Source: Blasia pusilla
Lineage: Eukaryota
NCBI GenBank assembly: GCA_050084515.1
Contig: CM114271.1
Location: 46,066,001-46,130,000, forward strand
Direction: 5' to 3'
Length of the DNA stretch: 64,000 bases
The translations under genes and the position numbers were made by a program. Below, in pieces: positions 24,201 through 55,600 of this stretch. The notes below the pieces were generated by a model. That model worked only from the letters and a program-made list of their open reading frames with translations. It was not told the DNA's origin and searched no databases. The first letter of the stretch is position 1. Each line of letters starts with the position of its first letter.

Positions 24201-25339
24201 TAAGGCTCAACATGAGAAAGATGGTTTGAGAAGCCATCCTCCTCACTCTTATACCATTGGGAAGAGCCAAAAGGCTCTTCCCCCAAAAATAGCCCTACCA
24301 ACGGTAACCTGCGTGCACAAGTTACCGGATGAGCGTTGACTCGGTCAACGGGTCACCTGACGGACTAAAACCAAAATAGGGAAATCGCCATAAACGATGT
24401 TCCCTACACAAGAGACCTGCCTCAAACCTCATCCGACATCCCGGAACGAAGTTACACCCAAACAGCCTGTTGACTCTCTATGTCGTCGACGCGATAGAAC
24501 TCTACCTATGTCGAAATAAGATATGACAGTTGTCGTGCACATACACATCACTACACAACCCATATTGTTGGTCACATCTATACACCACAAAAAACCGATA
24601 TTCCCCAACATACAAGTAGATCCACACATAAATGAAACATACTCACGCATATACACTGGGATCTCACAACCTCCCCTCTAGTTGGCAGTTGGGTCCCCCC
24701 AACTTCAGATAGCACACACATATGTATCTGACAAGATCTACTATCTTATATACATCTAGCACCATCGGTGCCCTCATCCCCGTAACATTGCCACACTACA
24801 GCAACCCGCTGTGGTGATCCCTCTGAAGAGATCTAACACTCTCGTACCGTGCTCCAAACATACGCATAGCTCCACGTCTGCCTCATGAGCTCATATGCAC
24901 TCCACGCATCTCAACGTTCGTCCCCAACAACAATAAAGAAGCTCTGTACCATGGGAAGAGACACCCATCCTTGCATGTCTCTCCGTGGGACTATCCGCTA
25001 TGGGAATGTCCTCCGCATGTGTGCTCCTCTCCCCAAACCCTCATGATCATCGAACACCACATGTGAATGTTGCCAATGTGGTCACCGTATCCTCACCTGG
25101 TCAACCACCACTACTCTCTACAAACTGCACCGGTAGATGGCTCACTCATCCATCACCTGATCGCCACCCTGGCCGATAAGAAACCATCTCCTCCCAAAAA
25201 TCCAGAATGAACCCAAGGGGATACAACACTGTACTCCCTACCAACACATCATACAACTCTGCCAGTATCGTAATCTCCCGAGTGCGCACCATTGCACTAT
25301 CTGACTTGTGTTGTGGCTGGAGTTTAACCACCAACTCTT

Positions 25340-26740
25340 TTCAAGTCATGTACTACGTGGGTGATACGCCCCCAATAGAGTTATGTATCTGAAAGGGACA
25401 ACACACTCTGCCTTCTCGGGATATACCGTCAAGAGAGAGAGGTTAGACATTTTCATGGCTTCCTCCATGTTGTTCTGTTGTGAGCGTTTGCCCACTGCTT
25501 TCGTTATGGTATCCACGAATGCTTTCTCATCTTGCTCCCATAGTTCAGGCCCTGCTGGGAGCTTGGAAGCTTGCACAATCTCTTGAACCTTTTTTGTCCA
25601 AGATTTGGCCTGCTTTACGGGTCTTCTTTGGATCCAGGTTTTTCCCATCACCTCTTTAGGATAGCCATGGGAGTCCATTGTCCAGCTGCCTTCGCCATTT
25701 TAACTTGGCAATGTCATGTCTATCCTCCAAGGGTTCCATACCTAGTTCTGATCTCACAGCAACTCGGGTTGTTCGTGATGAGGTTGACATCATACCCCAA
25801 AACACCTTCAACTGTACAACTTCAAGCCTATCCCTTTGTTTGGTGTTGGCATCCCACATTGCTGCCTCGTATTCCAATGAGGGACGAATGGTATGCAAAA
25901 TGACAGAGTGCTTTACTTCTGATGTGATATCCCGGCAGTGTAGGAATCTGGACAGACCGTTCACCTTCTTGTGGCCTTTCTCAGTAGTCTTCTTAATGTA
26001 TGCATCCCACATGCAATCTTTTGAGAATTCTATGCCCAGATAGGTGTATGTAGCCACACGAGGGATCTCTTGTTCGCCCTAGTACCACTGTTGGTCTTGG
26101 TCCTCCTCCTTGCTATTGAAAATCATCACACCGCACTTTAGTACATTTGCCTCCATGCCCCACATGTCACGCCAAATTTTGGTCAGGGAGATCATCTCTT
26201 GGAGTTTCTCTCATGTTTCCTCGAGGCCACCAAAGTCATCAGCAAACATGAGGGCAACAAAAGAGTTGTTGCCCACCCGTATGCCTAGTCCACTATCCTC
26301 CATTTCTTCCAATAGGGAATTCACAAAAATGTTGAAGAGAATGGGGGGAGAGCGGGCATCCTCGAGCCACTCCTTGCTTGATGTCGAATGTCCCACTCTT
26401 TCGGCCATTCACCATAACTCTACTTCTTGTGTTCTGGTACATCTTCTCCACCACCCTCCACATTTTCCCTCTCAGCCCCGCCTTCCACAAGCTATAAGAT
26501 AGCCCGTTACGCCATACAGTGTCGTATGCCTTCTTGAGGTCCAAGAAGAAGCAATAGGTGGGTTTCCCCTCTTTTTTTTACCCTGGATAATCTGACTAAA
26601 GGTGAAGATGTGATCCACGCATCCTCAGGCTTGCCGAAAGCCAGCCTGGCCTTCCTTGATGACACAATTCTCCTCCAGGTACACAGAGATCCTATTGTTG
26701 AGTATACGGCAGGGGAGCTTCCCGACACACTAATCCACAC
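25340..26740 (-). mobile_element. Non-LTR (LINE) retrotransposon ORF2 reverse transcriptase fragment, frameshifted, inserted in the protease of copy 4
   Basis: Translations include QAGFR, FLDLKKAYDTVWR, KQGVARGCPLSP/ILFNIFVN, LMFADDF and YTYLGIEF, which are LINE RT motifs. Confidence 0.9.
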
Positions 26741-27156
26741 CTACCAACCAGGGGAACAACATCGCAAGCTCACTACAGGTTCCAACTACAACAATGGGGT
26801 ACTCGATAGAGGACTCCAACTCATTTAGGAGACTGGTTCTCTGGGAAAGTAAATGCAAGTACAGCATTGCAACATCCTTCTTCTCAACAGTATCTCAATG
26901 CAAACTTGTTAGTGTACACAGCTCCATTTGACATGTTTCCTAAGAACACAACGGAGGTCCATGTCAACTTTAAGATATCTGAACTAAATTTCCAAGAGAG
27001 TGGGTAACACTAAAAAGGTCAAACAGACGATCCTGTGACATGGAATAACATCAAGAGTAATTTTTATATTTTTCATATGGTGATTATTTGCTAGGGAGCC
27101 TTGAAGATCAAATCACAAATTTGAGACTCCGCTGTTGCCTGCTTTGTTTGCCCCAC

Positions 27157-27903
27157 CTACATGAAAAGAGATTGCAACGTCTGCAAGAAACATTGCATGT
27201 TCCAATTGAAAAGGTAATGATGTTCATTATCAATGAGCCCCGAGTTGCAAAATCTACATAATGTGTCATCCCTTTTCTTTTGTGAGAATTTTCCTTTCTC
27301 AATCTCAAGGTCAGTAGAGCCACATTTGCATCTCGCTAATGTATGCCGTAGCTTAGTGGAAATGGGGGCAGAGATGTAAGAGGCTTGCTGCATGGATCTG
27401 CTATCTACTTTATTATCTACTTTATCTGATTGGGATCCCCAATAGACATTACTTACCAGTGCAGCAGCTTTGGGCAATGAATCAAGGCTACTGAATGTGT
27501 TGAACAATTTTGGTGCTACCAGCTTAGCAATATCAACATATGCTCTTGCTCTGTGAGCTATGAATTTTACGCAGGAGACCAAGGAATGACTAGAGGTTTC
27601 ATCCCCATCGTCACACAAGAGATGGTTTTCCCTACTCCATCTAGAGTCTTGCAAAGTAATGTGCAAGTTTGAGCCTTCAAGATCTTCGTATCCTCTCATA
27701 TCCACTGCACTCTTAGGGTATACCCTACTCTGACCATATGGAAGGTATATTGTTGGTATTGACAAGTCATCTTCATGATTGGATTCTATATGATTCAACT
27801 TAGCCACACCCACAACACCCTGGTAATCTGTTGCTTTCTCCTTGAAGTTCTCAATGCTATGGGTAGGGAGATAAAATCCAAGACCAAAATGGTACTCTGA
27901 CAT
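27157..27903 (-). mobile_element. Second LINE remnant: ORF2 C-terminal CCHC zinc-finger region with an unassigned upstream part
   Basis: LRHTLARCKCGSTDLEIEKGKF...LCRFCNSGLIDNEHHYLF matches the C-terminal motif of LINE ORF2. It lies upstream of the RT fragment on the same strand, so it is a separate piece. Confidence 0.65.
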
Positions 27904-28210
27904 AGAACAAGAATATTTGGGAGTGAGTGCTCAAGAAAGCTCATTTTCCACACAAGTTGTGATTGGGGATGATGGTTATAAGGTATAAACAACCTACCTT
28001 CACTACATTCAGTAGCCTTGATTAATTAATTGCCCAAAGCTGATGCACTTGTATGTAATGTTTATTGGGGATCCTAATCATGTAATCAACATATGTAGGA
28101 CAATAAGATGATTCCTATACTGTCAAGGCATCACATCACATGTAAACCGCCTTGTCATTCTTCTTCACTCTGTTGGAATATAAAAAAAGCAGTGGGGGAT
28201 GCCCCATTCA

Positions 28211-28216
<6 letters not shown>

Positions 28217-28302
<86 letters not shown>
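28217..28302. repeat. (CT)n microsatellite
   Basis: Perfect dinucleotide run. Confidence 0.98.
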
Positions 28303-28303
<1 letters not shown>

Positions 28304-31300
28304 GCCTGGTTGGGTTTAAACCCCAAAACTACAAGTCTCAGTAGGCCTGGTATGTTGGGACAACATGTTCTAAAGCACTGCTCTTGGGTAGCTTAACCCC
28401 ATAAACCCAATACCAAACACGTCGCCTTCCCTAACATCAAGGGTTACGCTCCTCGAATCAATTAGGACACGTTGCGGGTGGTACATCATACTTGTGGGAC
28501 TAACCAAGTGAAAAATTCATGCTCGCTTATCCAACAACATCATACCTTGTGTGATCACAACTGGCTTTATCGCTGGCCTAGTTGGCATATCTACCAACTT
28601 TGCCACTGCAGCATGCCATGACTCAGTGGGGGACATCCCAAGCGCATGCTCGAAGGGCAGGTCCACCACCTCCTCAAACGAGAGGCAACCACCTCTCCAC
28701 GCTCACACGACGTGGCGGCCTGCCCAAACACCTGCGTTGGTCCAACTCCCAACATCGCCAACTCCATAGCGGAAAACAACGGAGCATGGCTCATCCTAGT
28801 GGCCACCTCCAACAATGTGGTCTACACTAGCTCCACCTGAGTTGATATAGGAGTTGTCTCTCCAACTACTCGTGACGTTGACACACCTGTCCTACCTGTA
28901 AACACTATTGGTTGTCGAGGCACCATCAACGGTGTATGCAATGCCTCTTACAACGTGAATAACTAGGGAACCCTAGCCTATCGCCCATCGGTCCCCTCCT
29001 ATGGGCCGATCTCCACCCCACCTCTCAATGGCTCGGTCACTCTCGCATCACCCCGAGTCACCACCGCAACAGCCTCAACCTGAGCCGCATTGCACATAAA
29101 CCTTAGCCCCGTATCTTGATATGACGTGGAGGTTGGAGCCACACTAGTTACTCTCAGCTCTGTACCAATCACTCGCTGCATGATTGTTATGGCAGCAATC
29201 CTCTGCTCCAACCGATCAATGTAAGTGAGGAGCAATGCATCATGTGCACGTCCTCCATCTCCCCTGACTGGTGGTGGAACTTTACCGCCAAGATCATCAA
29301 CACCTCAATCTCCTCCAACTCTCTCACCCCACACCCTCTGTCTATCTCTAGACGTATCGCTTGGCGAAGATCAAAACACCTATCCCTAGTGTGACCATAT
29401 CGATGACAATGATCACACTGCAACTATGATAGGGCCATCCTAGGTGGCTCCTGAACATCCGGAGGCACCCTAGGGCCTCTACCATACTCTGGGCAGTCCC
29501 TCTGCCTATGTGGCCCACCACACGTCCAACAAGCCAACCTTGGCCCCTGCTCAGTAACATATGTCAGTACGGGTCATTGCCCTGCTCCTTGGGCCCACCG
29601 TCCCGCTCTCACGGTACTGGTGCACATCGTGGCATCTGTGGGGCCACTCCTACCCGTAGACTCATCAAATCCCGTGCAAATCTCGTGGTCACCACCTACT
29701 CCTCACTCATATTGAGCTCTACCTGCTCAGACAACATCAATGTGGGCTTCGCCATGTGAAGCAACATGGCATCGTGGACTCTCCTCCGTAGCTCATGGTC
29801 CAACACCCCGTACCAATACTGGATTGACTACGCCTCAGTCACTCCATAAGTAGTAATGAATAACAGCCAAGGTGGCTCGCCCCCCTACGCTCTAGGCCTC
29901 TCTCTTCCAGCTTACAATCCCATCCGCGGCTTCATACTCCCGTACGCGTCCGGCTTTGTACACCCCGGAAATTAGTACTCCCATCCGTATTTGTACAACA
30001 TGTCGTGTATATACGACCTAGCTCAAATTTTTGACCTAAAGCTTAAACGGCTACCTAGCCTCCCTTACTTGACAACCCCCCAAAGGCTGCAAGACCTAAA
30101 ATAACTTTCGCTTCTCTCCCAACACACTCACTCGCGACCACCCGCTACCCCACGTCACGCTACACGCTACACTCTGCCGTTGTCCCCCGTCAATCCACAT
30201 CGGCGAAATCTGTGAAAAATAGACGGCACTTCCGCGCACAGCCTCTCGAACATAAAAACAACAAAAAAACATGACACACATGTCTGTAGGGGCTCCCCAT
30301 TGCGGAAGCTCGCTTGCTACCTGCAAACAACGAATTCCACCCGGCCCTTGACATCTTTCTCATGTAAAATCAAGAGTAGTAAAAATGGCTCACCCAGCCT
30401 AAAACTCCACTCATGAATCTACATTGGTATATCAAACCACATCCACCCTTTGCTATGAGGGAATCCGGACGCTAGAACCCTAACTCTCATACACCCGCAC
30501 ACGTTTATGCAAGAGAGGCGCTCCTAAGGCTCAACATGAGAAAGATGGCTTGGGAGAGCCATCCTCCTCACTCTTATGCACATGGGAAGAGCCAAAAGGC
30601 TCTTCCCCAAAAAATAACCCTACCAATGATAACCTGTGTGCACAAGTTACAGGGTGACCATTGACTCGGTCAATGGGTCACTTGACGGACTAAAACCATA
30701 ATAGGGAAATCGCCATAAACAATGTTCCCTACACATCAGACCTACCTCGAACCTCATCCGACATCCCGGGACGAAGTTACACCCAAACAACCCACTCACT
30801 ATCTAAGCCGTCAACGCGATAGAATTCTACCTACGTCGAAATAAGATGTGACAACCAAGTCAATAGTCACCTGATAACCTATGCATGTAGGTTACCATTT
30901 GGAGGCTATTTTTGGGGAAGAGCTATAAGAGAGGGACAACTAGCTTTCCCAAGCCATCTTCCTTATGTTGGACCTAAGGAGTAACCCTCTTATTTTGAGT
31001 GTAGTAGGAACAAGGGTGTTGGCATCCGGATTCCCTCACAGTGGAGGGTGGATATATGCGGCTCAATATGTCAATGTGCATTCGAGAGTGGAGTTGGTTG
31101 TGTGTGCCATTTTTTCTGATTTTGTTGTGTGGTCTCCATGTATATGCATGAGTATATTCCGTTTATAAGTAGATTAGCCCGTGTGTTGTGAGATGTGTGT
31201 TGTATGGTGTGTAGATGTGACCAACAATGTATATGTGGACGATAGGTTACACTCTGAAAAATTGGGGCGTGTTGATCGTCATCCAAAGATGGTCCCTAAA

Positions 31301-31759
31301 CCTTGGTTTTTAATCGTTCTCAACTAGCTAAATGTATCTATGCATCTTTTGCTACTTACAATATTGAGAAAAAATTTCCATGGGAAGCCGCTATTGATGT
31401 GAGTGATAACTACCCCCTAACCATGTTTGTATTGTGTCATCATAGCAAAACCCTCCCTCTTTTTATTCTCTTACTGAATTTTTTTTTCATTCTTTACCTA
31501 CTGCAAGTGAGGTGGGGGGAGAAAGGGGGACAAATGGATCTAGTGGGGAATGGGTGAAGGCCTTCCCTTATCCATGGGTTAGGGACTGGTCCGACTAACC
31601 ATGCCAACATCCCTACAACAGGTCTCATGGTTGGATTTGGGATAGTTCTTATCCCAACATGCATGGGGTTGGGATGTCAAGAGGTTCATATTGATTGATG
31701 ATGGTAGATGATATGTTGAATATAGATGATATTGTGAAGATTGAGGATAAATGAACACG

Positions 31760-33788
<2,029 letters not shown>

Positions 33789-34549
33789 GCTAATAAGTGA
33801 TAAATTCCAATAAGAGAGGTGACAAGAGATAGGAAATAAAATTTCAATAAAATAAGGAAGTAAGATCAAACTTACTCCATACCTCTCTAGTAGTACAAAG
33901 ATTCTAACTTTGTGATCTTCCCTTGCATCTAAACATCCACAGGTTAATCCAAGAGTGGATGACATTGGGTTCGACGAGTATGAGGGTCACTTCCTAAAAC
34001 TAGAGGTGGAGAGCGGGATTCAAACCTTTTCATATAAAGGAATTACTCTCTTAACTATGTCAAAACCTCATATACCTTAGGGATGGAAAATTTATCTTTT
34101 GTTTTCTTGTTTATCCACAACCCATGATTAAATTGATTTTCAATCACAAGTAAAAAAATAACAAGATCTAAAGACGCAGACAATCATTTAGGAATATTGG
34201 AAATAAATAGTCTAGTGGCCCTACATTGATGTTGATGGGCCTACTTTGAAGCGAGAACAATAAATAAAGTACAATAGTATGGGTTTATAAGAATAGTAAT
34301 ATTTTATATTGCAATGTAATGGTAAGTTGTGTGGTTTGAACTTGGTGAACGCGGTCCTTGCTATTTCTAATAAAATACAAATTCGTTGAAAAGGCCAAAT
34401 ACATTACTTTGTAAGTGTTGAATGAGCCTAATATTCAAATCATGACTAAATAGCTTCATTGTTTATGATGAGCTTATGTCTACATCAAGTGGGAACTATT
34501 TTGATCTTTACTTTCTTATGGTCCACTCATGCTCACAATCATGTATAAA

Positions 34550-37500
34550 AGCTATAGGTTAAGAGGGATTACAAGATGGATTGATCATGATGAGATATCT
34601 TGCTATTTCCATCATGGGATGAGTCTCTTTATGTGGTAATGTCCTTCGCTGGATTGGTAGTATTGCCATCCAATATAGGAAGGCAATGCATTTTGCAATT
34701 TGATTAGATCTACGTGATTTACTAGATAGAATACATTATTCAACAAGCAATGCAATACTTTAAAAAACAAACTTATCTCAAAAATTACACTAGCAACCAT
34801 ATGATTAAATATTTGAAACCACATACAATATTGTTGAGAACTAAAGAATGAAACTTCAATAGTTCAAACTTAGTTCAATCCAATAAGATTGAAAGTAAAG
34901 TTCATCAACATCATAATGAATTTTTAAGAACTTGTGCACAAGTCTATTATTATTGATGGTTGAACCGAGTCTTGAATGAAGTAATTATTGGAGAAAAAAA
35001 TCTTGTGAAAATAACACTAAGCATGGATGTTCACTGAATTGATACCCCATAGCCAACCATGGTAATTGTAGGTTCCACTCCCTTACATGTCCTTAGTGCA
35101 AGTCATACTTGTGTAATCCTCTTTTCATAACATGTACTACTATCTCCTCTGACCCATCTGGTTGAGAATGATCCTTGGATACATTGCAATGATCTATCAA
35201 CGCTTGACCACACAAGATCTGAAAATTTACTTTAAAATTGATACCTTTGTCACTTAATATTTTCATTGGTGTACCTCAATGACTTAATCTACGATCTATA
35301 AACATGTAAGATGCTCCCTTGCTCGTGTTGTTCATGAGTGCCACTAACTCAATCCTCTTGGAAAAATGCTCCATTATGAACAATACGTATCTATGACGAT
35401 ACCTTATCAAAGGAAACTATCATGTGAAGTATAGACTCCACTTATAGCCAAATCCCATAAACAAAAGGATGCAATTATGGATTGGGAGTATTGAAGGATG
35501 CTCATATTAAATCACACCATACATCTAGCCATAAATTGTTGAACATTGGTGTACATGCCATACCACCAATAATGAACGTAGAGGAAGCTATGAGTATGAT
35601 ATAATCCAAAATATCCCAACTCCTTATTGGCATGTTACACAATATCTTCTTGATATGAAGGACGAGTAAAATATGCCATCCACATTCTACCATCCATACA
35701 TCCTTCCACATTAATCTTTTGGATTAATGCATCATTCCACATTAATCTCTTTAATTAGAATCCAATCTGATTCTCTAGCCAAAGTTGCATATGATCAAAG
35801 TCTGTGTCCATGGACTTACGTCCAACCTATAAAAGGACTTATCCATATAGGCCCCATCTCCCCTACTTTCTCGCCTCTATGATCCGCACTTTCTCGTTTC
35901 TTCCTCCCTCCACCTCTATCTAAATCCTAAATCCCCGCCTGGCCTCCCACCACGAGTTATAAATATGGGCCCCACCTCTTGCAATCCATGTCCATGGACA
36001 TATCCAAACTTGTACGTCCATATCCGTCCTATGGATGATTTTTTGTTTTTCTGCAACCATATCCTTAACACTCACTTTACTCACCATGATGCCACTACGT
36101 AGGTACTTAAAAACCTTCTTATTGACATGAATATTGCAATTAACCAAAGCATATTCAATGAACTCTTGACCTAAAGACTAACCATGTGATCCCTCTATGG
36201 GATTTGTTTTCATGTTGTTGACTTGATATAATCCATCAACACATAAAAGGAGATCCGTATCAACCTAACACCATCTCGTTATCACCCTCTCCCTCTCTAT
36301 ATATGCCATCAAGCTCTTGTCACGTCATTCAAACTCAAACATGGGTTGCAACTCAACCCATCAGCATCCCGGTTCAATTGACATGACATATAAACCACAT
36401 CAAAATTGAAAACTCTTGTAGTAATAGAACCCACTTGGCAAGCTTTCTTGCAACTTGGTAAGACTCTATCAACCATCTAAATAGCTTATAATGAATAACG
36501 AGCATGAGGAATTTTCCAAATAAATGGCAATTGAAAGGTGACATAATAATTATAGCCAAACATTCTCCCTCAAGCATAGGATTTGTACCTCACCTCTATA
36601 ACTTTTTTTAATCAACTCGTATAAGCAATAATGAACTCCGAGTGCTAATGATTTCTACGAAGTATAACCATTCCAATAGCCAACATACTCCAATCCACAT
36701 GTAATAGGAATGGAAGACCCTCAATAGATCTCTGCAAAATGGGCAAGGACGTCAACATATCCTTGAAATCTTGGTACTTTTTCTTTTAATTATCTCCCCA
36801 ATGCCACACCTAATAAAATCTCTTCAACAAGGTCAAAGACTTTGCGATTATATTAAAATCCTTTAAATATCGTCGATAGAGTTTGCTAGTCTTAAGAATG
36901 CTTATGTTCGACTCACATCTATAGAATATGGAATACATGTTATATCCTCTATCTTTGTCTTTTGAACACCTAACCAACCAAGTTATATGGTGTTCCCTAC
37001 TTACTCAATATGATCCAACAAGAATTTGCACTTGTCTAGATGTAGCATTAGTCCATGTAACTTCAATCAAAGAAATACCACTTCCAAGTATTGCTAAACT
37101 TCGTCAATCATGGAACTGAAGATGATATTATCATTTATGTAACGCCACACATATTCCAAAAAATTTAGAATCCTATCCATGAACCTTGTGAGCTCTATAA
37201 GGGTGTTTTTTGAACCAAATGGTAAGAATCGTCATTAGTGCTAACAATCTCCATGGATATCCCACTATGACCTCTAGCATCATGCTCTATATTAGAAAAA
37301 ATAAACATATGTTACTTTGGTTATCTTAAGCCTTACATCATCTACTTAAACTATACGTCTTAGGAAGTCCATGGGTATCTATCTCTCTTTGTCTCATCTT
37401 TATTCAATGCCCCAACAATCTCCATGGGCAATGGGCTAACCCACGGGGGTGACAAAATAAATGACACTCGGATACATTGCTTCTCAACTAAACCCATCTT

Positions 37501-42236: not shown

Positions 42237-42240
<4 letters not shown>

Positions 42241-42320
<80 letters not shown>
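42241..42320. repeat. (GA)n microsatellite
   Basis: Perfect dinucleotide run. Confidence 0.98.
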
Positions 42321-42323
<3 letters not shown>

Positions 42324-43818: not shown

Positions 43819-46800
43819 ATGCACAGAGCAACTGCAGCAGGAGGCGGAGGTCTCGGGGTTGCTCGGTGCTCGGAAGGATGGCTTCGGAATGCCGCGGGAG
43901 GAGGAGGTTTTGATGTTGCTTGCTGCTTGAGAAGATGGCCTCGGAATGCCGCAGGTTTTCTTCCATCGCAGGTATAATTGCTCTACAGGCGGAGCGATTT
44001 CTTTAGCTGCAATGAGATCCAAGTGTGAGTGTGAGTGGGTGAGGGTGGCGAACTGCGGTAGGATTTGAGGAATTGTTTGCTCCAGGTTAAGGCCGTGAAC
44101 TTTGTCGCCATGCGTCTGGGTGCGTTCGCGCTTGGTTTTTGTATGCGTCATGAGTTGTGGAGAAGTAGAATTTCTCGCGGAAGGTGGTGCATGGGTGGCA
44201 CGGAAATATGGGACGTGTCCGACCGGATCGGATTCGCTGCACTTCAACTTCATGAGAGTGGAACCCACTGGTGAACTGACGCGCGGTAGAATTGTTTCTG
44301 CGCTTTCTTGTGCCGTCGCTCGATAGTGGGAGGGAGAGGGGAAGCTTGCTGTTCGACTTTTTCAGCGTCAGGAGTATCTGAAGTATCTTCCGAAGCATTT
44401 ATGGCTTTTCTTTTCTGTATGGTAGTTCGTGGGGAGAAATCACGAATTGCGGCGTGCCAACTAGCGATCGATATGTGTTCGGTCACCGAATCTGACGGCG
44501 TCGAGGTTATTTCTTGCAGAATTGTAGGAGATTTACGACGTTGAAAGCATCGCGAGCAATCATCAGTCAGAATACCGGAGTATGCTGGGAGAGCCCGACT
44601 TCTCTAATTGGTTCGCTTAGCAATATTTTTACTGAGGTGTCGTTCCCTTGTCTTTATGCCATCGTCCTTGGTAGATTGCCGGTACTGTGAAGTTTGAGAA
44701 CGAACTTGAAGGGTACTTTTGTCGGCCTCCACTGAATGTAAAGTGTTTTCTTGCAAGTTTCTGTCATGTGTCGAGCTTCATGTGCCCCATAGATCTCTCA
44801 CATCGATAGTTGGTTGTAGGGTCAGGCCATAATTTCCCACGAATCAGCGAGGAGCAGAGAAGGTCGTTTCCTGAAAAAACGGGTTAATCTGAGTAGGTCT
44901 GCAATCAATCAGGTGGGCTCAAGAGCTCCCCAAATCATCCTCGTAATGGTCTTGGTGGTATCTCAACTTTGTCTCAGGGAGACTCATTTTTATCCTTTTG
45001 CTTCTAAGGCCAGTTGTCGAGCTGGCTCTGAGCGAGTTGTGTATTGAACTTGCATTGGTAACCGAATCTGCTTGCCATAAATCAGTTTCAATCTCTTACA
45101 AGTTGGATTTCCTTAGGACTTCTTGCCCTACATATGAATTCTCACCCACCCCCAGCGTTTGTTACAATTGCAATTGCCATGAAAATAAGACCGTCCATCC
45201 GAACACTAGGTCCCTTTGCTTACGGGAACCCTGTTTGTCTGTCTGTCTGTCAGTAGATTATGAACTTGCTCTTCAATCTCATAAGCATTTTACAATCCAG
45301 GGTGGAGAACATGACTCTCTTGTCACAGACGATCGGGCAGATGGGGAGATGGGGGTCATTGCTTCAGCTGATGCACAGGAAACACCTAGAATGGAATCCA
45401 TGCCCTTGAAAGCTCTGGTTCCAAAGTTGGAACCAGGTGACCCAGTGACAAGGTATGGAGGGATAGGGAAAGGGTTTATTATTTCATTAGATCAGGCAGG
45501 TTTCTTTTTAAGAGTGAAGTGGAAGATATTTTCAGATGCGCAGCTTGTGGAGAGTTTGGAAAATAGGCTCAATGCATCCATCGCAGTTTCGGCTATCACG
45601 GCTCTATACTTCATCAACACTAAGAAAATGTCGCAACGAAAATATTCATACAGGCTTGTTTGTCTACCCGTACAGTGCCGTGCTCACATGTTCCCTTCGG
45701 AAAATTGTGTTACTGCAGGGTTGGACAGAATATCACCGCTGGATATTTTATTGTGGCAGTTGGTGCACTGCTCTGGTTGGACTCTTCTCTATGGTGGATT
45801 GTTCAACAGCCCCTTGCCTCTTACTATCTCACTTTACCGTTTCTTTTATCTGCTGCAGTGACTGGCATTGTGGGCTACTTTTGTGTACCTGTACTCAAAA
45901 AATTAAAAGCAGATCAAGTGTTCCGTAGAGAGGGCCCAGCTGCACACTTACTCAAGTCTGGAACACCAACAATGGGAGGAATGTTTTTTGTACCAGTGGG
46001 TGTGGCAATTGCTTGGTTATTCACCCAGGTCGATTCTATTGAAGTCCATGGAGTGATTACAGTGACACTTGTCTATGCTGGGATAGGTTTACTCGATGAT
46101 GCCCTTACTCTCTGGCGCAGACACAACTATGGGCTCCCAGGATGGATCAAGCTCATGTTGCAGGTGACATTCCCTGAACGATAACTCATGAATCCAGATA
46201 TGCCATAATTACCTGTGTGTGCTTTTCATTTTCTTGTCCATGATCCTCACATGTGGATAGCGTACAGGTTGCTGCGGGTACTATATTTTCTCTTTGGCTC
46301 GAGACTGCCAACTTGCCATTGAGGTTGGTTAATTTCCTTGTAGGCATGCATGTCAGTATGGCCACAGTAAGGCTATGAAGAAAGCATTGACAAGAATCTC
46401 CTCAGACAAGTAGTAATCTGTCAATCAAGCAGAATGTGGTTGAAAGAACATGGATCGAGAAGATGATACCTACACAGCTAGACCCAATGTCATGTGAAGC
46501 ATTCATAATTAATGTCAAGGAGTCTGATAACACAACAAGGGCAGATAGATTACGAGTGCTTGAGAACAAATTAGTGTGAATGGTAACTTACTGGGTTGTG
46601 TTACTTCAAATGTGCAGAAGGAATATATTATCTCTACCCGCACCTTTCGAACCCCTTCAATTGGGCAGATGGTATCTACCATTGACAGCATTCTGTTGTG
46701 CAGCCATGAGCAATGGTGTTAATCTGACTGATGGGCTTGACGGACTTGCTGGAGGCACTGCTGCAGCTGCGTTCCTCAGCATGGCTGTTGCTGTGCTACC

Positions 46801-48295
46801 CAACTATCCGGGTATGAAAGGGATTCAAGTGCTTTCCATTGCAAGATGTTGCCTATCAAGTATTTGTCTACAGCTCCTTGTGGAGCTGTAGACAAATACT
46901 TGATGCTCACACTTCTTATTTTCTCTTGAGATGTAAATGTCACCATGATGCCCAATATTCTGCTGTGTTTCAATCTGACCAGAGGAAAACGTGAGTCCTT
47001 ACTTCGAAGAGATTGGATTCATTACTCCCTTTGACAACCCTCAAACTTGACTTCACTTACCAACTCCCACTAATTTAGATATTTCGCAACCTAAACTCTG
47101 GTACTTGTGGGTATTTCCAACTGCCACTCTCATTGCTTCTTCAGGTTCCTTGAAATGTATGAGTGAAAATCAATTTGAGCTAGTGGAGTGACACATGTTC
47201 TTGGTGGTAGATACTTGTCATGGACCAAGGTCTACAGGAGAAGGTACTGGTAGTTAACATCCAGTTTTCTAGCATTTTGTGGGGGAAGAGAAAATTGAGA
47301 TACAGATGGAAGTTGAATCAATTGTGGACTATTAACATTTTTTTAACTGTGCAGCGCTTGGTGTGTTTGGATCATCAATGGCTGGAGCGTGTTTCGGGTT
47401 CCTTGTGCACAACAGATACAAAGCAAAAGTATTCATGGGTGATACAGGATCCTTGGCCTTAGGCGGCGCACTAGCAGCTATGGCAGGATGCTCAGGCCTA
47501 TTTCTTCCGCTCTTAATTGCGTCAGGGTTGTTTGTTCTTGAAACTATTTCAGTAATGGGCCAGGTATACTCTCTCTCCATCTATTCTCTTTCTGTATCGG
47601 GCAAACTAATTGTACTCAGGGAAACTATTGTACTCACTAATTGGACCCCAACCCAGTCCAGCACAACCTTCCCGAACTTGAGATGATGGGAATGTGTAGT
47701 GAACCATCTGACAGCAATCTGCTTTCTCAGACTGCTTAGTAACAGCCCAAAAGGGAGTGAGCGTCAGTGGCCAGAGGTAGAGGCTCTGGGCCCCGGCGTT
47801 CTCATGAGCCTAAGAGTTTGACGCATAAATATGAACATGTCAACACTTTTGTGGAGTCTGATGACCATAAAATCAGTTGTACTCTTACCTTTATCCCGCT
47901 TGAGGAGCTAGCTCAAATTTTGCCCAAGAACTCGGAACAGCTGTGGGAGGCAGCGAACAGGTTTTCGAAAAATATTCAGATTTGAATCGCAAATCTCTGT
48001 TGTAGGCCCAAGGGAACCTCTTGTCATGATGTGGTTGAAATTCTTCCTTACTGGCAGGTACACTCTTGAAAATGTTTCCCCTCTTTGTGTATTGGTGCAG
48101 GTGTTCTATTTCAAGCTCACCAAAAGCTTGTATGGACAAGGTCGTCGTTGGCTTCGAATGGCACCTTTCCATCATCATCTGGAGTTCCTGGGCATGAAAG
48201 AACCTAGTATAACATCCGCAGCCTATGCGGTAGGGTCGGCCTTGGCTGTGCTGGCAGCGTACATCGGCCTCTCGTGCGCGAAAGTTCAATTTTAA
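43819..48295 (+). CDS. MraY: Phospho-N-acetylmuramoyl-pentapeptide transferase (plastid MraY / translocase I). Confident exons: 45719-46163, 46268-46323, 46618-46811, 47355-47563, 48101-48295. Tentative N-terminal exons: 43819(or 43651)-43971, 44520-44579, 44820-44912, 45301-45452
   Basis: MraY motifs [53 protein letters not shown] and MAPFHHHLE. All listed exons have GT-AG borders with compatible phases. The N-terminal exons rest on splice sites and phase only. Confidence 0.92.
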
Positions 48296-49319
48296 CATAC
48301 AAGGCAGTAACTGCGGAAGGATGATTATATGAAGTGTAAAAAGTGTCGAGGCCTTGGAGTCATGGAATCATCGAATCTACTTAGGCATTGATGGGCGCTA
48401 CTGGTGAAGCAGTCGTGACAGTAGACCTAGCAGTCAATCTCTCGAGCCATGGGATGGGCGAGAAATGGACGAGGTGCTATGAAGAAAAGTAACGAGAACT
48501 GATAGCGACCTAAAGAACGCGTGGGGATGTGCGCAAATCTGGGAGCTCAATTTGACTTGGTGTCCAATGGTTTCTCTTGTCCAAGGTGACAGAGGAATTA
48601 CATGGCCACGCCAGGTACGAATGTGTAGGGCCATGTGGTCGGTTCTCCCCACACCAGTGTGACGGTGATTCATGTCTTCCTGTAACCTAAGATTTTGGAG
48701 TTACTAAAGTAAACTACTTTCATATGTTCGCATTATTTGTGTTCCACTCCACGACCTACCACCTCTGATTGGGGTGGATCCATGAATTATTTGCCGCGAT
48801 CTCCTCAGATGATTCCTCTCGGATTCTCCTACAGCCAATGCAAACTTCGGAAGAGGCGGTGCGATTGGCTCAGCCGCAGCCCCTCTGTTACAAGGATGTA
48901 GATTCTCGTGGCAGTCTGCTGTCTCCAGGGAAAGCGTGAAGCGAAATGATTGCTTGTACCGCCCCTGCGAAGAAACAACGGGGCCCGCGGAAGCCCTCAC
49001 GAAGAACAGCAAACCACTCCGGAACACTGACTTCTTGTGGGCTTTTAAAAGGCGACCATCTGAAGTGGTCTCGCCCGGTGACCCACCTGAGCGATGTCGT
49101 GCGGATAAAGGCTAAAGGCTAGAAGAAGCTGACAAATCTATTATTTACTCGGAGTCTCGGATCTGTGGAGAGCTTATCGGTGCCTTCTGCCTGTTCGAGG
49201 TCTGCACATTTCGGTCCACTTGTCTGCGGACGGTTCCATAAGCTCAGCAGAGGCTCAGACTGAAGGTACGTACTAGGAACCATTAAGGGGCGGCTTCTTC
49301 GAGGTCTGCTGTACAGGAG

Positions 49320-49600
49320 TAGCCCTCAAAACACTGCGGCAAAGCAGTAGCGCTTAAAATCACCGCTGCAAGTTCTGGTCTTCAAAATCGCCGCGGCAAA
49401 GTTGCAGCCATCAAAATCGCTGCAGACGTAGTCCTCGAAATCACTGCTGCGAAGTTGCATACCTCAAATTCACTGCTGCGCAGTCGTAGACTTCAACATC
49501 ACCGCTGCATGTTTGTGTTCCTCGAAATCACTGCCGCGGAGTGGTAGCGGTTAAAACCACTCCTGGAAAGTAGCAGCGGTCAAATCACTGCAGCTGAGGA
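49320..49600. repeat. Degenerate ~26-30-bp tandem repeat (~10 units)
   Basis: Recurring aaatcac(t/c)gc(t/g)gc...agt.g.ag..ctc units. Confidence 0.8.
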
Positions 49601-49707
49601 CTTCAAGTTTGGGAACTTGTGTAGAGCGGAAATCGCCTCAGAGGTCAGCGCGACGCTGTAAACGAGCTTTGTAAGGATAGGAAGTCGGGAACGATCATGA
49701 CTCGGTG

Positions 49708-50295
49708 CCGGAGCGGTAGGCGTAGGAAGAAGCGGCCGAGACGCCACACAGCCATGGCTGAGAGAAGGAACTCGACTTCGAGAGCACTAGAAATTCTCTG
49801 AAACAATCAGAGAGGATTCGATAGCGTTGGACACCACCACAATCCGCGGCAGCCGCGGCAAGACTCAAATTAGGTTTGCAAAGATGGGAAGTCGCATCTT
49901 CCTATCTTTGCAAATCTAATTTGAGCTCGGAATCGGGCCTCAGGGCAGGAGCGGAGCGGTAGGCATAGGGAGAATCGGCCGAGCCGTTACAGCTATCGCA
50001 AAGAGAAGAAAAGAAACACGACTACGAGTGGAGCACAACTTCTCTGAGACGACCGTAGATGATTCGATGGCGTCTGAAACACCACCACAATCCGCCGCAA
50101 GATTCACATTCAGGTAGTAGGCAGTCGGGAAGAGAGAATCACGACTCACTGCCGCAGGGGTTGTTGAAAAGCGAGGGAGGGGAGAAACGGCCATGGCTGA
50201 GAGAAGAAACTCGACTCGGAGTGCACTAAAAACTCTCCGACCCAACCAGAGAGCATTCCATGGCGTCGCACACCGCCACGGTCCGCAGTCGCCGT
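49708..50295. repeat. Three diverged ~105-150-bp direct repeats at ~230-240-bp spacing
   Basis: cggagcggtaggc(g/a)tagg...gccatggctgagagaag...actcgact...gcac...attc(g/c)at(a/g)gcgt...cacc(a/g)ccac..tccgc at ~49708, ~49952 and ~50188 (the third is 5'-truncated). Confidence 0.75.
49864..49925. ncRNA. 28-bp stem / 6-nt loop hairpin (candidate miRNA or hairpin siRNA precursor)
   Basis: CTCAAATTAGGTTTGCAAAGATGGGAAG - TCGCAT - CTTCCTATCTTTGCAAATCTAATTTGAG. The two non-Watson-Crick pairs are G-U on the + strand. The hairpin is certain; its function is unproven. Confidence 0.35.
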
Positions 50296-52339
50296 GCGAG
50301 CTTCCCAAGCTCACACGCCTCTATTCTCCTCAGAGGCCCTCCAACTCCATAGCTCCGCATCTCACGCGTTTCCCGGCGGTCCAGCGCCGCACTCCGAGCT
50401 CTGTTTGCCTGGAATGTGGGGCGGCGACGACTGTCCCGTCGCAGATACGCCGTGTCGCGCGGAAGGGGACAGGGGCGCCCGCGCACTTTCCGCTGTTCCG
50501 GAACACCGTCGATCGCAGATGCTTATCATCTGACGTCTCTCGTTTCCCGGCGATTGTTTTTGGCTTTCTTCCGTCTTTTACGGGCCCTCTCCGTCATAGA
50601 AGGCAGTGAAAGAGGTCTATATCAGTGTCCGGGGAGAACCGGGGTTACGTGTTCAGTTGGCCATAAGAATTTGAGAATTTCCGATTCGGTTCGTCACTTA
50701 TCGGCAAAAAACGGAGGGTTTAGGGACGGTGTCCTTTGAATTCGTATCTGTTCAGCCGGCTGGGATGACGAAAACTTCAAAAATTGTCGCTCGGTTTTGT
50801 AGAGACCGGTAATGTACTGGTTGTCACGAAAAAACTCCCCACACCCTGGTCTATATGGTAATAGAGGAGCCGTTTTCAAATGTTGCCAAGGGAAAATTTA
50901 TGGAGAATTTATCGGGTATCTTTGAATCTTGCATGGGTAGGGCGACGCGTGGCATGGGTAGGGGGCATTAAATAACGGGGTGTTCAGGATTAGGTCGTTT
51001 GAATCATGCATGAGTAGGGCAACAGTCATCACCCTAAGTAATGGGGCGGTCAGGGTTAGGGACCATGGAGTGGACCATGCATCGCACGGTCTCCTCATGG
51101 GTTTTAGCTAGTAGGTCTTAAAAGGGGAGTTTGTAAGGTTTTTGATTTCAAATTACAATAAGTAGGATTCATTTTAATTATCTATGTAATTGAAAAAGGA
51201 TGAGGTTACACAAAACCTCTCAAAGGTTTCTCATGGTGTTGACACATGCCACTTTAAGAGATGAAGTTCAACTAAGAGGATTAAATTAAATGAAGAAGGG
51301 AAATGAATGTCGGAGCTTTTTAAAATTTGAAATCACACGTGTATAGACTAGGTAGTAGATTTTAACATAGTCTTTCTTCAATCACCCATTGTCTATACGG
51401 TTAGAATGTCGTTTGTTGGTTTACTTTCATCCTAAGGCTTGTGCTCTCAAATCTTAAGAACTTTTTTTCCCATTCGCTTTCTTCTTAGTTGAATTTTATT
51501 TGGTTTCACTTGTTGGGATGATTATGTTTATATATGTGTTACCAAATTTCCGATATTTACATTAAAATGGAATATTAAGAAAGTCATTTCCAGCATTCGA
51601 TATCTTTTACATCTGAATGCAATCTAAATAAATCAAACTTATCTTCAAAGAATGCCTCGGTGAAGATGTTGACCAAATTTTTTATATCTCGTCATATATA
51701 TAAGGTCCATGTCATTTGCTAAGACCCTCTCTCAAACGATCCGATATTGTACCTAAATGAGTTTTTTCCTCGTATGAAACACTTGATTCTTTTGTTAATG
51801 AGTGTTATTAATATGATTTGCATGTATGAAAGCTAACTTTAAACATTGGTTGCCTATATCTACAAGATAGTTTTTTAACCCAACTTATTCACATTTAGTC
51901 ATGGTTGATTCTTCTGAATCAACTTCTGTTTTCGGCAAGGAAATAGTTGGTTATTACTTTAGTGCCCAACTTACTAAAACACTTCCAAATCTGAATACAT
52001 ACATGAAAGTAGATCTTTTATCAAAGGTGCTCCTTGCCCAATCCAGAGCAATATATTATTGTAGCCATAAAGATTCAGTTGATGAATGACAAAATTTGAA
52101 TGGACTTGTAAACTTCTTATACCTTAAGATCTACCTCATTAGATCCAGATGAGGTTTTTGGGGCCGATTGCATAAACCGACTCATTAATCCAATAAAAAA
52201 GAAGAAGATATAGACCTGCGATAGTCAATTAGATCAAGATTCCAACCACAACACAATATATGTTGGGATCTCATTATCTTTATCTACTTTAAACTTCAAA
52301 CTTTGGTCCAATTGCATGGGAATTGACATGCGAAGACAT

Positions 52340-55300
52340 ATAAGTAGGTCTTTGTGTGTAGAGGTATCTATATGTGAGGCATAAAAAGACGGTAAGATGA
52401 GTCTCACTTCGAACAATGATCCACTTGAGGAAGTATTTCCTCATATCTTACCAATGTCAACAACGCAAGATTACGAGATTTCCTTGTCCAACGACATGTT
52501 GTTGTTGGGGGACGTAGGGCCTAGATCGGATGGGTACCAGTCATTTATTCATTGTAAGTTTTCTATGTTAGGGTTGGTCAAGTGCTAAATAGGGTGGGGG
52601 GGGGGGGGGGGGGGGAGGAATTTGGCGTATGTGGGGGCTTGGGAGACCCTAGGTTTGAATTCTTTAGGGATATGGTGGAGATCTTATGACATCCGCAAGA
52701 GCACTAGACTAATTCTCCACACACATTCTAGAGAATGTCCTAATTTTGGGTGAATCTTAGTTTAGGGTGATGATGAAAGTACATCATGTTCGTGCATGAT
52801 TGGACCAATAGTATTGTTGGATGCAATGAGTGTGGGATTGCGCCCGCATTTTTGCTCCTCTAGTGGACAAACTTGATGCCACATAAGGTGTTCAGGAGAG
52901 TCTATGCAATAGTGGAGCAAAACTCTTAAATGTTTGTGAATTCGATTTTGGATCATGGATGTCGATCATAAGCAATGAAGTAAGATGGTCAACCCCCCTC
53001 GAGTGTGATCAATATAGTTGGTATGCGACAAGCAACACTCTCCACACTGGTGAATTTCCCTACCTCTAATGCTTACAAGGAGGGTGGTTATGGTTTGATT
53101 TGGGATGATAAAGTGCAATGGATGGTGGAGCCCAATGTTGATGAGTGAGAGAGCATGATGAAAATTTTCCATAAGAGTGACAATAATGTTGTTATTGAGA
53201 AAAGAGTCTCGACCCCATATCCTCGGTTAAGCTGTGGATCGAAATTGCAATATATATATTATCACTCTAGGAGTGGCTAGCAACTTCAAATGCAATTGAG
53301 GCATGTTACCTCTCAGGAACTTGTGAGCCCTATGCCTAACAAGATGGAAAAGACAATAGCTAGGGGCAAGGCAAGAGGAGATCCATGGATCAAAGGTAAT
53401 CAAGAGAGACACCCTTGAACTTCTTGGGATATGATGTAGGTACGCTGAGACATGAGAATTATGACACTTGGTACCATGCAAGATTTTAATCACTTAAGTA
53501 TATCGAGAGGAGAGACATCTAAGTTGGTTGCACGAGAAGAGTAGAGTACTAGTGATAATGAAGGGGTTGCATAATAACTATTAACCCTATGTTGGAGAAA
53601 ACTATTGCATTCTTGATGGAAATATGGGAGCCAAAGTTTGGGCCTAAGTTGACATAAGGAGAGCGACACTGGGTACATTGGTCCATCAGGAGTCAACCAA
53701 GGATATGTTGAAGCAACCAAGGATCCACATTGAGTTGTCAAGTGACATATTGATCTTCCGATAGTACATGAAATGAGATGGACATGGCTATGATTTAGAG
53801 CAAGAGTAAGAGTTTAGTTGAGGTAGACGTAGTGGAGATGTTGTACGGAGAGTATACCTAGGCTATTGTCATGCCCATAACGAAGGATGTGCTATACAAT
53901 TGATGTATAGGTAGATGTGTGGAGACTATCAACCTATCAATTGAAAGACAAAATCTAACTTGTATACGATGTCCATGCTAGAGGAGGTCTTTGATGCCAT
54001 TGGGTATGTAAGGGTCTTTAGATCATTAGATCTATAGTTGGATACCTTCAGGTGCCTACAAGGGTGGAGGATAGACGGAAGATGATATTTGGTCACAGGA
54101 AGGATTGATTATACCAATGGCGATTCTTATCATTTTGATTAAATAACACCTCGGTAGAGTTTCAGAGAGTCATGGTGGAAATCTTACAAGATTTCGATTT
54201 TTCCAAATGTTATATTGATATTATTGTAGACTTTATTACCATGGGTGAGAAGCATGAGCGACACCTTGCGGAGATGTTCTAACAATTATACTTACATAAG
54301 CTAAAGCGATATCTAAGCAATTGCAATTTCTTCTATGCCTAGATTGAGTACTTGGTTCATACAATAAAATAATGTGAACTTGATATTCAACATACAAAGC
54401 TAAGGGCTATCTCACGTATTCTGCGCCCTACAAATGTGAGTCAAGTTTGTGCATTCATGGGATTAGAAAATTTCTATTGATGATATGTTAGGGTGAATTC
54501 AACACGATTGTGAAGCTTTTGACCTTATTGTAAAATATGGACCATAAATGGTAGTGGGAGGATGATCATAATAGAGCATTTCAATTCCTTAAGGATTGAT
54601 GAATGTCAAAATACACACGGCTTGGAGTATATTGGAACTTAGAGCGGTGCTCATCAAACATGAGGATAGAGAGTTTGTATTGGATTGCACTAGCCGCTCA
54701 AAGAATCTTGTAGAGGAAAAGTACAACTCGTATGAGGGAGAACTCTTGGAGGAAATATGAGCGGTTGTGCATTTCAAGAGTTACTTTTTTGTTAACCCCT
54801 TTACCCTCATCATTTATCATCAACCATTGAAATGGTCGATGAAGTCTGACAAGCTTAGAGGGAAGCTTCAAAGGTGGGCATTATTGTTACATGAGTATGA
54901 TTTCCATGTGGTACATCAACCTAGAAGACTCAATCAAGAGGTGGATGGTTTTAGTTGTAACTCATGCCAGTGTTAGCTATTGGAGCTCATTGTATGGGCA
55001 TGGTAGGAATATGAGGAGATGGTTCTTGGTTGGCATACATCTACCTATTTAGTTTTATTGGCCATGGAGAACCATAAGACCTTGATTGTAATGACAAGGT
55101 CGAATGGAGAGTTCGAGGTTGGTGAGGAGGTGACATGTGGCCTAGATACCCGAGAGGATGGATTAGTCTTAGAGTACCTACATATTGGTAGCATATATGG
55201 CATGCACAATGGGTTCCAAAGAGCGGAATTGGATCCTCTAGCAAGCTAGATGGTTTAAGTGGGAGGGGGTTTATGTTTTGTGAGTTTGGGAGGATTGTAG

Positions 55301-55600
55301 AGTACGAGTGGTGCCTTATCCATTATTTAGAGCTTGATTGGTTTAGTATACCTACAAGGAATTGGGGCATTTTGGAGTGAGGTGGACATATAGGTTGCTC
55401 AAAGTTCATTATTAATGAATTACTTTTGTTTAATGCTCTCACTATTGATCATGGATTTATGCCACCGAAGGAGTTTGGATTTTATGGCCTTTATCATTGA
55501 TGGAGTAGCATGATCAATATGTACTAATAATTGTCGAGGACTTCTCGATGTGGATTGAGTTGGTTGCATTTCCCAACAAGGCGTGTGAGTGAGTAGCATA
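52340..55600 (+). mobile_element. Decayed DNMT-RT-RNaseH-integrase pol of the same lineage (copy 3)
   Basis: RYLYV (motif II) ~52365, FLC*GWSS (IV) ~52560, HILENV (VI) ~52725, L*WTNLMPH (VIII) ~52860, GLIWDDKVQWMVEPNVDE (IX) ~53095, ILG*AVDRNC (X) ~53220. RT CGDYQPIN and YIDI 53920-54225. RNase H 54700-54960. Integrase start ~55350-55580. Confidence 0.85.

Follow-up and report, generated by a model that had tools for sequence, protein, structure and literature searches.

A Ty3/gypsy retrotransposon family with a Dnmt3-like methyltransferase between protease and reverse transcriptase, seen in four decayed copies in Blasia pusilla

When pieces of a DNA (cytosine-5) methyltransferase (DNMT) recur among retrotransposon debris in one stretch of a plant genome, are they remnants of a host gene, the products of separate captures, or the mark of an element family of which the enzyme is a regular part? 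This question is raised by a 64,000-nt stretch of the liverwort Blasia pusilla (assembly GCA_050084515.1, contig CM114271.1, positions 46,066,001 to 46,130,000 of the forward strand), which is referred to here in its entirety as the window. An earlier note on this DNA had proposed an old, abundant lineage with the order gag-protease (PR)-DNMT-reverse transcriptase (RT)-RNase H (RH)-integrase (INT) that kept the methyltransferase, as opposed to a one-off capture. We consider it highly probable that the window holds four independent dead insertions from a family of Ty3/gypsy elements in which a Dnmt3-like DNMT is a standing part of the polyprotein, following the protease and preceding RT.

The window is rich in transposon debris, with GC content ranging from 32 to 56% and a longest reading frame of at most 304 codons. 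Copies were mapped by tblastn with proteins of relatives, such as the Marchantia protein P0005, and a Pfam scan covered 121 stop-to-stop pieces taken from the four copy regions. Four separate decayed Ty3/gypsy fragments were found, each with part of a C5 cytosine methyltransferase between protease and RT. Motifs are given by their usual names for C5 methyltransferases (I, IV, VI, VIII, IX, X).

59763-64000 (+): copy 1; gag 59763-61525, PR region from 62313, DNMT from about 63150 to the window end, cut before motif X
63165-63185, 63420-63434, 63552-63566 and 63669-63692 (+): copy 1 motifs LDLFGGI, WPCQG, MENVP and AHRSRLWW, in that order
~37980-34991 (-): copy 2; DNMT motifs VIII-X 37909-37354, RT-RH 37249-36303, integrase 35712-34991
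~52335-55649 (+): copy 3; DNMT 52347-53433, RT 53619-54492, RNase H 54608-54967, integrase 55215-55649
23906-30853 (-): copy 4; whole insertion with its own termini, an internal deletion after DNMT motif I and a nested long interspersed nuclear element (LINE) inside
29869-28402 (-): copy 4 gag, from tblastn against P0005 residues 181-639
25427-24816 (-): copy 4 PR (25427-24999), linker and DNMT motif I (RVLDLFRGI, 24842-24816), with coding similarity stopping at about 24760

The gag-PR-DNMT part of copy 1 aligned with residues 14-1164 of P0005 (tblastn, E 3e-128), and PF00145 (C-5 cytosine DNA methylase) was recognized within it at 63378-63752 (+) with 38.6 bits against a cut-off of 22. Window gag scored weakly in Pfam (17.3 bits, cut-off 24.1), yet it aligns to the gag of P0005. 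Copy 3 begins directly past motif I, its DNMT matching P0005 residues 901-1243 (tblastn, E 4e-25), and contains an RNase H piece at 54761-54973 (+) above the cut-off of PF17917. Copy 2 begins inside the DNMT, with motifs VIII-X matching residues 1055-1243 (tblastn, E 1e-24) and two RNase H pieces, 36377-36589 and 36648-36785 (-), each slightly below the Pfam cut-off. Both are treated as 5'-truncated because sensitive blastn within the window found no 5' long terminal repeat (LTR) for either. In copy 4, the linker and RVLDLFRGI are collinear with the linker of copy 1.

The DNMT parts can also be compared directly. Copy 1 matched copy 2 (63669-63860 versus 37909-37718; tblastx E 2.5e-10) and copy 3 (tblastx E 9e-25), the latter also in blastn at 66.7% identity (52660-53151 versus 63483-63976, E 7e-28), and copies 2 and 3 matched each other (tblastx E 1e-7). 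Significant alignment of copies 2 and 3 with copy 1 was the check that the earlier note had set for its claim, and the outcome gave no refutation. The four copies represent separate insertions because their DNMT parts overlap or their strand order excludes a single element, and because copy 4 is bounded by termini and a target duplication of its own. The note's account of four independent copies, with protease then motif I in copy 4 and with DNMT sequence followed by RT, RNase H and integrase in copies 2 and 3, was therefore upheld by tblastn, Pfam and motif positions, in the case of copy 4 through collinearity with copy 1.

Copy 4 is the only one of the four with both ends preserved, and its termini are arranged in an unusual way.

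30853-30366 (-): repeat A1, the 5' terminal repeat, 88.5% identical to A2 (Kimura two-parameter distance 0.124 over 487 sites)
24670-24531 (-): repeat b1, 84% identical to b2, with the purine tract AGAGGGGAG directly before it
24528-24042 (-): repeat A2, the pair of A1
24041 to ~23906 (-): repeat b2, the pair of b1 and the 3' terminus of the inserted element
23714-23905 (+): left piece of an older A+b unit, the first ~190 bp of A, 73% identical to the reverse complement of 24338-24528
30854-31230 (+): right piece of the older A+b unit, the rest of A and then b, 68% identical to the reverse complement of 23933-24345
28401-25428 (-): nested LINE-like insertion of ~3 kb that separates gag from PR; its RT piece lies at 26296-26577

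Along its own strand, copy 4 consists of A1, an internal part, the purine tract, b1, A2 and b2. It begins with TGTCAC and ends with CACGACA, and the flanks TGGT and CGGT are likely a 4-bp target duplication. The element inserted into an older, oppositely oriented A+b terminal repeat and split that unit into two pieces that overlap by a few bases; because the older unit resumes outside the ends of copy 4, next to the TGGT/CGGT flanks, b2 belongs to copy 4. The same layout was found in a full 9.1-kb metagenome element (locus L038) that contains the DNMT inside its repeats. Here the A repeats measure 342 bp (92% identity) and the b repeats 113 bp (94%), a purine tract again precedes b1, the ends read TGTCATG...CACGACA, and the element is flanked by a perfect 4-bp target duplication, AAGG. 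The complete elements thus have the layout A-internal-b-A-b, TG...CA ends and a 4-bp duplication; the ends and duplications are those by which Ty3/gypsy LTRs are recognized, and the repeats are not two plain LTRs. The junction between b and A reads ...GACA-NN-TGTC..., and A-internal-b-A-b would correspond to a tandem pair of (b+A) units that was opened at this internal CA|TG junction. If the layout arose from a two-LTR junction opened at ...CA|TG..., it would point to an unusual integration substrate. A search for a tRNA-Met primer-binding motif gave three matches with two mismatches each, against five expected by chance.

The nested LINE in copy 4 was recognized by its RT piece (RVT_1, E 1.6e-9; best solved-structure matches LINE-1 ORF2p, E 2e-8), which showed no tblastn match to the RT of the gypsy-DNMT family itself. 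A 257-codon open frame within it, at 27160-27930, had no match in Pfam or PDB.

These complete elements bear on whether the DNMT pieces could be pseudogenes of a host DNMT3 lying beside retrotransposon debris. That explanation fits the fragmentary state of the window copies, of which three have neither end, but relatives carry gag-PR-DNMT into RT-RH-INT in single frames, among them P0041 (2188 aa) and metagenome locus L015 with only two stops, and in L038 the DNMT lies inside repeats bounded by a perfect duplication. With L038, L015 and P0041 the pseudogene explanation is already refuted, and we give it practically no credence.

In order to place the window copies, positions 62796-63752 of copy 1 were translated with the single TAG read as X and used as a query (P0001), which matched 20 longer proteins: 14 Marchantia polymorpha gene models, one from Calypogeia fissa (55% identity), one from Sphagnum fallax and four unnamed. 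The closest relatives of the copy 1 DNMT are therefore from liverworts (Marchantia, Calypogeia) and Sphagnum. By themselves these matches indicate a bryophyte as host, in all likelihood a liverwort different from Marchantia and Calypogeia. Gag-PR-DNMT followed by RT-RH-INT is the order in the Marchantia, Calypogeia and Sphagnum gene models, in the near-intact L015 and in L038, which together with the window copies confirms the full order proposed earlier. The Pfam order in relatives is that of gypsy elements (PF00078, PF17917/17919, PF17921, PF00665; RT, RNase H, DDE integrase), and zf-CCHC and Asp_protease are present in P0041, P0021 and the first open reading frame (ORF1) of L015. L015 itself (321-6809, +) is a near-intact element of liverwort type, with gag-PR, DNMT and RT-RH-INT in one frame interrupted only by two TAG codons. 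A contig of a distant (38%) relative, L056 (1-10138), holds two 3.58-kb direct repeats, 99.9% identical, around ~3 kb, the result either of a very recent tandem arrangement or of the assembly.

When 1.84 billion representatives were searched with a profile built from nine members, 17100, 3406 and 598 clusters matched at E<=1e-3, 1e-10 and 1e-30, respectively, and the best 150 matches all reached E<=4e-79 over the DNMT part. Domain order in these 150 was read with segments of P0021, and five were checked by Pfam. Two architectures emerged: type A, PR-DNMT-RT-RH-INT, comprises the window copies, the liverwort elements and the clades of P0021 and P0041, and type B, RT-RH-DNMT-INT-PHD, is the commoner one among the best 150, with named examples in Scenedesmus sp. 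PABB004 and Chlamydomonas eustigma. The full type B order was seen in 33 of the 150, of green-algal and metagenomic origin (e.g., P0064, P0257, P0202, P0031), its PHD finger standing at the C-terminus, where chromoviruses have a chromodomain. Several type A members also have a C-terminal PHD finger (P0021). Klebsormidium was not among the named matches of these searches; with word-based look-ups of limited reach and 10 clusters named, this is not evidence of absence.

Phylogenies were built as quick trees without an outgroup, in which the window copies form long branches. In the DNMT tree (170 rows, FastTree), a single set of 43 rows with support 97 unites every type A row with the three usable window copies, and a liverwort set of 15 rows (support 100) contains the window copies. 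The RT-RH tree (109 rows) shows the same split between types, with 11 type A rows and window copies 2 and 3 (13 rows) set apart at support 99. This agreement bears on a reading in which separate gypsy lineages each took up a host DNMT3, leaving no single ancestral acquisition behind the four copies. Several acquisitions of a DNMT by retrotransposons are indeed known from other groups, according to portions of the 2018 paper of de Mendoza et al. (PMC5890265), and the wider family has two placements of the domain, PR-DNMT-RT and RH-DNMT-INT. However, the placement is identical in the four window copies and in all liverwort relatives, both trees agree on the A|B split, and the linker, stop context and repeat termini are also shared. 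Repeated independent capture is therefore most improbable. An old and abundant lineage that kept its DNMT, as the earlier note had it, is supported by the shared order, the 598 clusters at the strictest threshold, the agreeing trees and pN/pS values below 1 (see below).

The methyltransferase itself resembles the Dnmt3 family. Searched by sequence against all solved structures, P0005 found DNMT3A, 3B or 3C as all of its best 25 distinct sequences (E 1.7e-8 to 2.3e-5), followed at a distance by M.HaeIII (E 1e-3) and DRM2 (E 0.31), and DNMT1 was absent among the matches at E<=1. The alignment to DNMT3A chains follows the normal, unpermuted motif order I-IV-VI-VIII-IX-X with the key residues FxG, PC, ENV and RxR, and includes the HRxRxxW motif VIII and a short target-recognition region. 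An AlphaFold (AF2) model of the Calypogeia protein, built from a 55-row alignment, had predicted local distance difference test (pLDDT) values >90 across residues 305-645; the Foldseek matches listed through rank 50 were all DNMT3A, 3B or 3C, most with template modeling scores, TM(target), of 0.76-0.84 and E ~1e-17, and the model superposes on DNA-bound DNMT3 catalytic domains. Residues F321 and G323 (motif I), C408 and Q409 (IV), E451 and N452 (VI), and A489, H490 and R491 (VIII) are invariant in 12 of 12 and in 9 of 9 sequences. In sequence and predicted fold the domain is Dnmt3-like, and its derivation from Dnmt3 appears well supported, though not proven.

Decay differs among the copies, all of which are dead, with frame changes in addition to in-frame stops. 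Copy 1 has 16 stops in 961 aligned codons, copy 4 has 15 in 517, copy 3 has 25 in 531 and copy 2 has 22 in 414. The ratio of observed to expected CpG is 0.72 in copy 1, 0.60 in copy 4, 0.40 in copy 2 and 0.42 in copy 3, and GC content is ~50-52% in copies 1 and 4 with copy 1 at 50%, 37.5% in copy 2 and 40.5% in copy 3. All four are relics, with decay increasing from copy 1 through copy 4 to copies 2 and 3. Different ages of the copies, another point of the earlier note, fit the unequal CpG ratios and the matching stop densities.

Several observations weigh against the interpretation of a standing, functional DNMT in these elements and are considered together here. Since no copy in the window is intact, the window gives no sign of activity in this genome. 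The motif I match of copy 4 is weak alone (62% identity over 16 aa, with E 0.003 when the search space was small), and tblastn with the DNMT part of P0005 gave no match at that place; it is accepted because of its position after PR and linker. The mutual grouping of the three window copies in the trees may be an artefact of long branches or decay. The split repeat was seen in two elements only, copy 4 and L038; no b unit was seen in L010 and L031, two further metagenome loci that have a repeat pair, and L002 ends at a contig edge. Motif IV reads WPCQ, or WECQ in one clade, against SPCN in the aligned DNMT3A chains. PCQ is typical of bacterial enzymes and of DNMT1, and fits HaeIII and HhaI, which were listed as looser matches of P0005, as would be expected if the methyltransferase came from a bacterial or viral C5 methylase and not from a eukaryotic Dnmt3. 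Two phage-rich DNA methylase clusters and a streptophyte cluster all scored 0.96 in a feature-based ESM Atlas search, which was uninformative. In sequence, however, DNMT3A/B/C are ahead of HaeIII by about five orders of magnitude, and every fold match listed through rank 50 is a DNMT3, which makes a bacterial or viral source very unlikely.

Selection on the DNMT belongs to the same weighing. For the window copies, pN/pS was calculated over codons anchored on a reference protein, with bootstrap limits; the values show constraint and not its exact strength, because choosing codons by protein alignment favors conserved stretches, which lowers pN, and synonymous sites are saturated (pS 0.64-0.84).

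DNMT, copies 1-3: pN/pS 0.66 (limits 0.56-0.78), 252 codons
DNMT, copies 1-2: pN/pS 0.42 (limits 0.33-0.54), 87 codons
DNMT, copies 2-3: pN/pS 0.64 (limits 0.54-0.77), 155 codons
RT-RH, copies 2-3: pN/pS 0.63 (limits 0.53-0.75), 234 codons
gag, copies 1-4: pN/pS 0.55 (limits 0.46-0.65), 241 codons

When the frame was shifted by 1 or 2 bases, pN/pS for the DNMT and RT-RH pairs was 0.75-1.13, and the third codon position was least conserved in the true frame only. The earlier note had proposed a comparison of DNMT and RT between subfamily consensuses; between window copies the DNMT values are below 1 as for RT, which supports its reading. Amino-acid identity between window copies is 28-44% over aligned codons, and the copies therefore stem from lineages that split long ago. 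A wider sample was drawn from 80 metagenome loci, 52 of them liverwort-like, of which 23 cover both domains well; over 248 pairs the median pN/pS was 0.56 for DNMT and 0.47 for RT-RH. Deep divergence (pS >0.4) was represented by 43 pairs, each with L015 or L037 as a member; among these the DNMT was less constrained, with 0.45 versus 0.24 for RT-RH. The DNMT is under purifying selection that is less tight than that on RT. This difference would fit a domain that was kept but no longer methylates DNA, serving instead as a structural or binding module or as an RNA methyltransferase; yet 12 diverse members show no variation at the catalytic residues of motifs I, IV, VI and VIII, and the predicted fold superposes on DNMT3 catalytic domains in their DNA-bound state. 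We regard loss of DNA methylation as unlikely, and the methyltransferase of the family as probably active. It would modify newly made cDNA of the element or its integrated copies, so that a new copy receives methylation that is either host-like or self-chosen, an idea put forward earlier for the elements of dinoflagellates and Klebsormidium.

In the relatives, the DNMT closes ORF1 (gag-PR-DNMT), and a conserved in-frame stop, UAG/UAA-CAA-CYN, precedes RT-RH-INT. Marchantia models of ORF1 type stop at one homologous place, ~35 residues past the DNMT, and a stop was found at the homologous place in at least 26 of 37 metagenome loci with both flanks, RT resuming 51 (or 36 or 48) bases on in the same frame. 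The context was TAG/TAA CAA CYN in 25 of 27 cases. A decayed remnant is present in the window:

53572-53580 (53569-53580 with GCA) (+): remnant of the stop in copy 3, GCA TAA TAA CTA, where relatives have TAG CAA CTA/CCC

Other clades (P0041, P0022-P0027) have an unbroken single frame. Of the two TAG codons in L015, the second is the conserved one; the first stands right before the DNMT and may have arisen by mutation or may serve as a further recoding site. Separation of an upstream product from the polymerase by readthrough is known from gammaretroviruses, with their gag-UAG-pol arrangement. The tobamovirus (TMV) readthrough context, type I, is UAG followed by CAR YYA, according to parts of the source consulted (PMC2754532). 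Most stop contexts in the family fit five of its six bases, the sixth being mostly C in place of A (22 of 25). The likeness to the leaky tobamovirus UAG lies in an in-frame UAG, CAA and two pyrimidines between an abundant upstream product and the polymerase; the difference is that the upstream product of the gypsy family ends with a DNA methyltransferase. We infer that Gag-PR-DNMT would be the main product, made in bulk, and that the RT-RH-INT extension would be made by occasional readthrough of the stop.

The earlier note had also assigned the copies to at least two terminal-repeat subfamilies. The divergence of the copies stands, and at 28-44% amino-acid identity it is more than that of subfamilies; a second terminal-repeat subfamily is doubtful, since the repeat in question, a ~490-bp unit R near copies 2 and 3, was not accepted as an LTR.

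57180-57667 (+): unit R
33061-32588 (-): unit R
33388-33641 (+): unit R

These units share 76-79% identity, and two of them form an inverted pair adjoining copy 2. As a common LTR of copies 2 and 3, unit R was rejected: the units at 57180-57667 and 33061-32588 are 79% alike, more than the adjoining coding parts of copies 2 and 3, which have no similarity at the DNA level, and no 5' partner of the unit was found in the window.

Retrotransposon-borne DNMTs are known, and the present family is a land-plant member of that kind; the additions made here are split terminal repeats, an in-frame stop and, in green algae, a second architecture. De Mendoza et al. (PMC5890265) describe DIRS and LINE elements with a DNMT in Symbiodinium and a gypsy element in Klebsormidium, and a 2026 preprint adds elements of Cymbomonas and Euglena. 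A 2025 paper refers to the 2018 study for DNMT3 carried by retrotransposons "in streptophytes"; the survey table of that study includes Physcomitrella and not Marchantia. According to an opinion paper, land plants such as tracheophytes lack transposons of this kind. Full-text searches, from which subscription journals and PDF supplements were absent, turned up no account of a DNMT carried by a retrotransposon in liverworts, mosses or land plants at large.

The nearest counterpart is KnitGypsy-Dnmt3 of Klebsormidium nitens, which as described in passages of the 2018 paper (PMC5890265) is a Ty3/gypsy element with a non-rearranged Dnmt3-type DNMT in its polyprotein and, from the legend, DIRS-like A-coding-B-A-B repeats, the layout of copy 4 and L038. 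The host is likewise a streptophyte. Its DNMT is under purifying selection with Ka/Ks <0.2 (PMC5890265, same passages), whereas selection is weaker here, at pN/pS 0.42-0.66 in the window and 0.45 in the deep metagenome pairs. Hosts of the present family are land plants (liverworts, Sphagnum), the likeness being drawn from the published description, and the passages on KnitGypsy-Dnmt3 (PMC5890265) do not mention a stop after the DNMT. SymbioDIRS-Dnmt3 and SymbioLINE-Dnmt of Symbiodinium also have a DNMT under purifying selection, and the DIRS form shares A-coding-B-A-B (PMC5890265, in part); these are DIRS elements with a tyrosine recombinase, or LINEs, while the family described here has a DDE integrase (PF00665, PF17921). 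No tyrosine-recombinase match (PF00589) was listed in the Pfam scans of relatives, which carry rve and Integrase_H2C2. The chlorophyte RT-RH-DNMT-INT-PHD elements ('pol' of Scenedesmus sp. PABB004, CEUSTIGMA_g2191 of Chlamydomonas eustigma) have a closely related DNMT (profile E<=1e-79 for the 150 best) and a gypsy RT-RH-INT, but their DNMT lies between RNase H and integrase, not between protease and RT, and the main split of the DNMT and RT-RH trees sets them apart from the present family.

Other features of the window are given for completeness.

44947-47683 (+): intron-bearing host gene for an MraY-like glycosyl transferase of family 4 (PF00953, MraY signature), between the truncated 5' ends of copies 2 and 3
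10235-15506 (-): host glutathione S-transferase (GST) gene, GST_N exon 15270-15506 and GST_C exon 10235-10936
31803-32448 (+): fifth gypsy fragment, C-terminal part of an integrase only, no DNMT, closest (42%) to the green-algal type B protein P0031
18111-18182, 28210-28304, 39991-40039 and 42235-42336: one and the same simple dinucleotide-type repeat, the source of numerous staggered self-matches (90-100% identity)
49678-50294 (+): three tandem diverged units, 72-75% identity, directly upstream of a 162-codon open frame (50121-50606) with no family match

Both host gene regions have a low observed to expected CpG ratio of 0.34-0.36.

Finally, a broader picture can be put forward tentatively, as possible and not as the favored outcome. 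Liverworts and at least one moss would host a large, old, undescribed gypsy clade that makes Gag-PR-DNMT before a leaky stop and integrates from circular or otherwise non-standard cDNA, and that belongs with the chlorophyte type B elements to a single lineage dating back as far as the green plants themselves, the DNMT having been acquired once and then moved within the polyprotein.

Retrotransposons with their own cytosine methyltransferase invert the usual picture, in which the host methylates the transposon, and descriptions of such elements have so far come from dinoflagellates, a single charophyte alga and a small number of further algae. Many Marchantia gene models of this kind that are annotated as "DNA (cytosine-5)-methyltransferase" or "hypothetical" are transposon genes and not host DNMTs. 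Marchantia is a tractable genetic model with methylome data, and the many copies there are open to direct tests of the enzyme's use to the element, of disturbance of the host methylome, and of the workings of the repeat layout and the in-frame stop.

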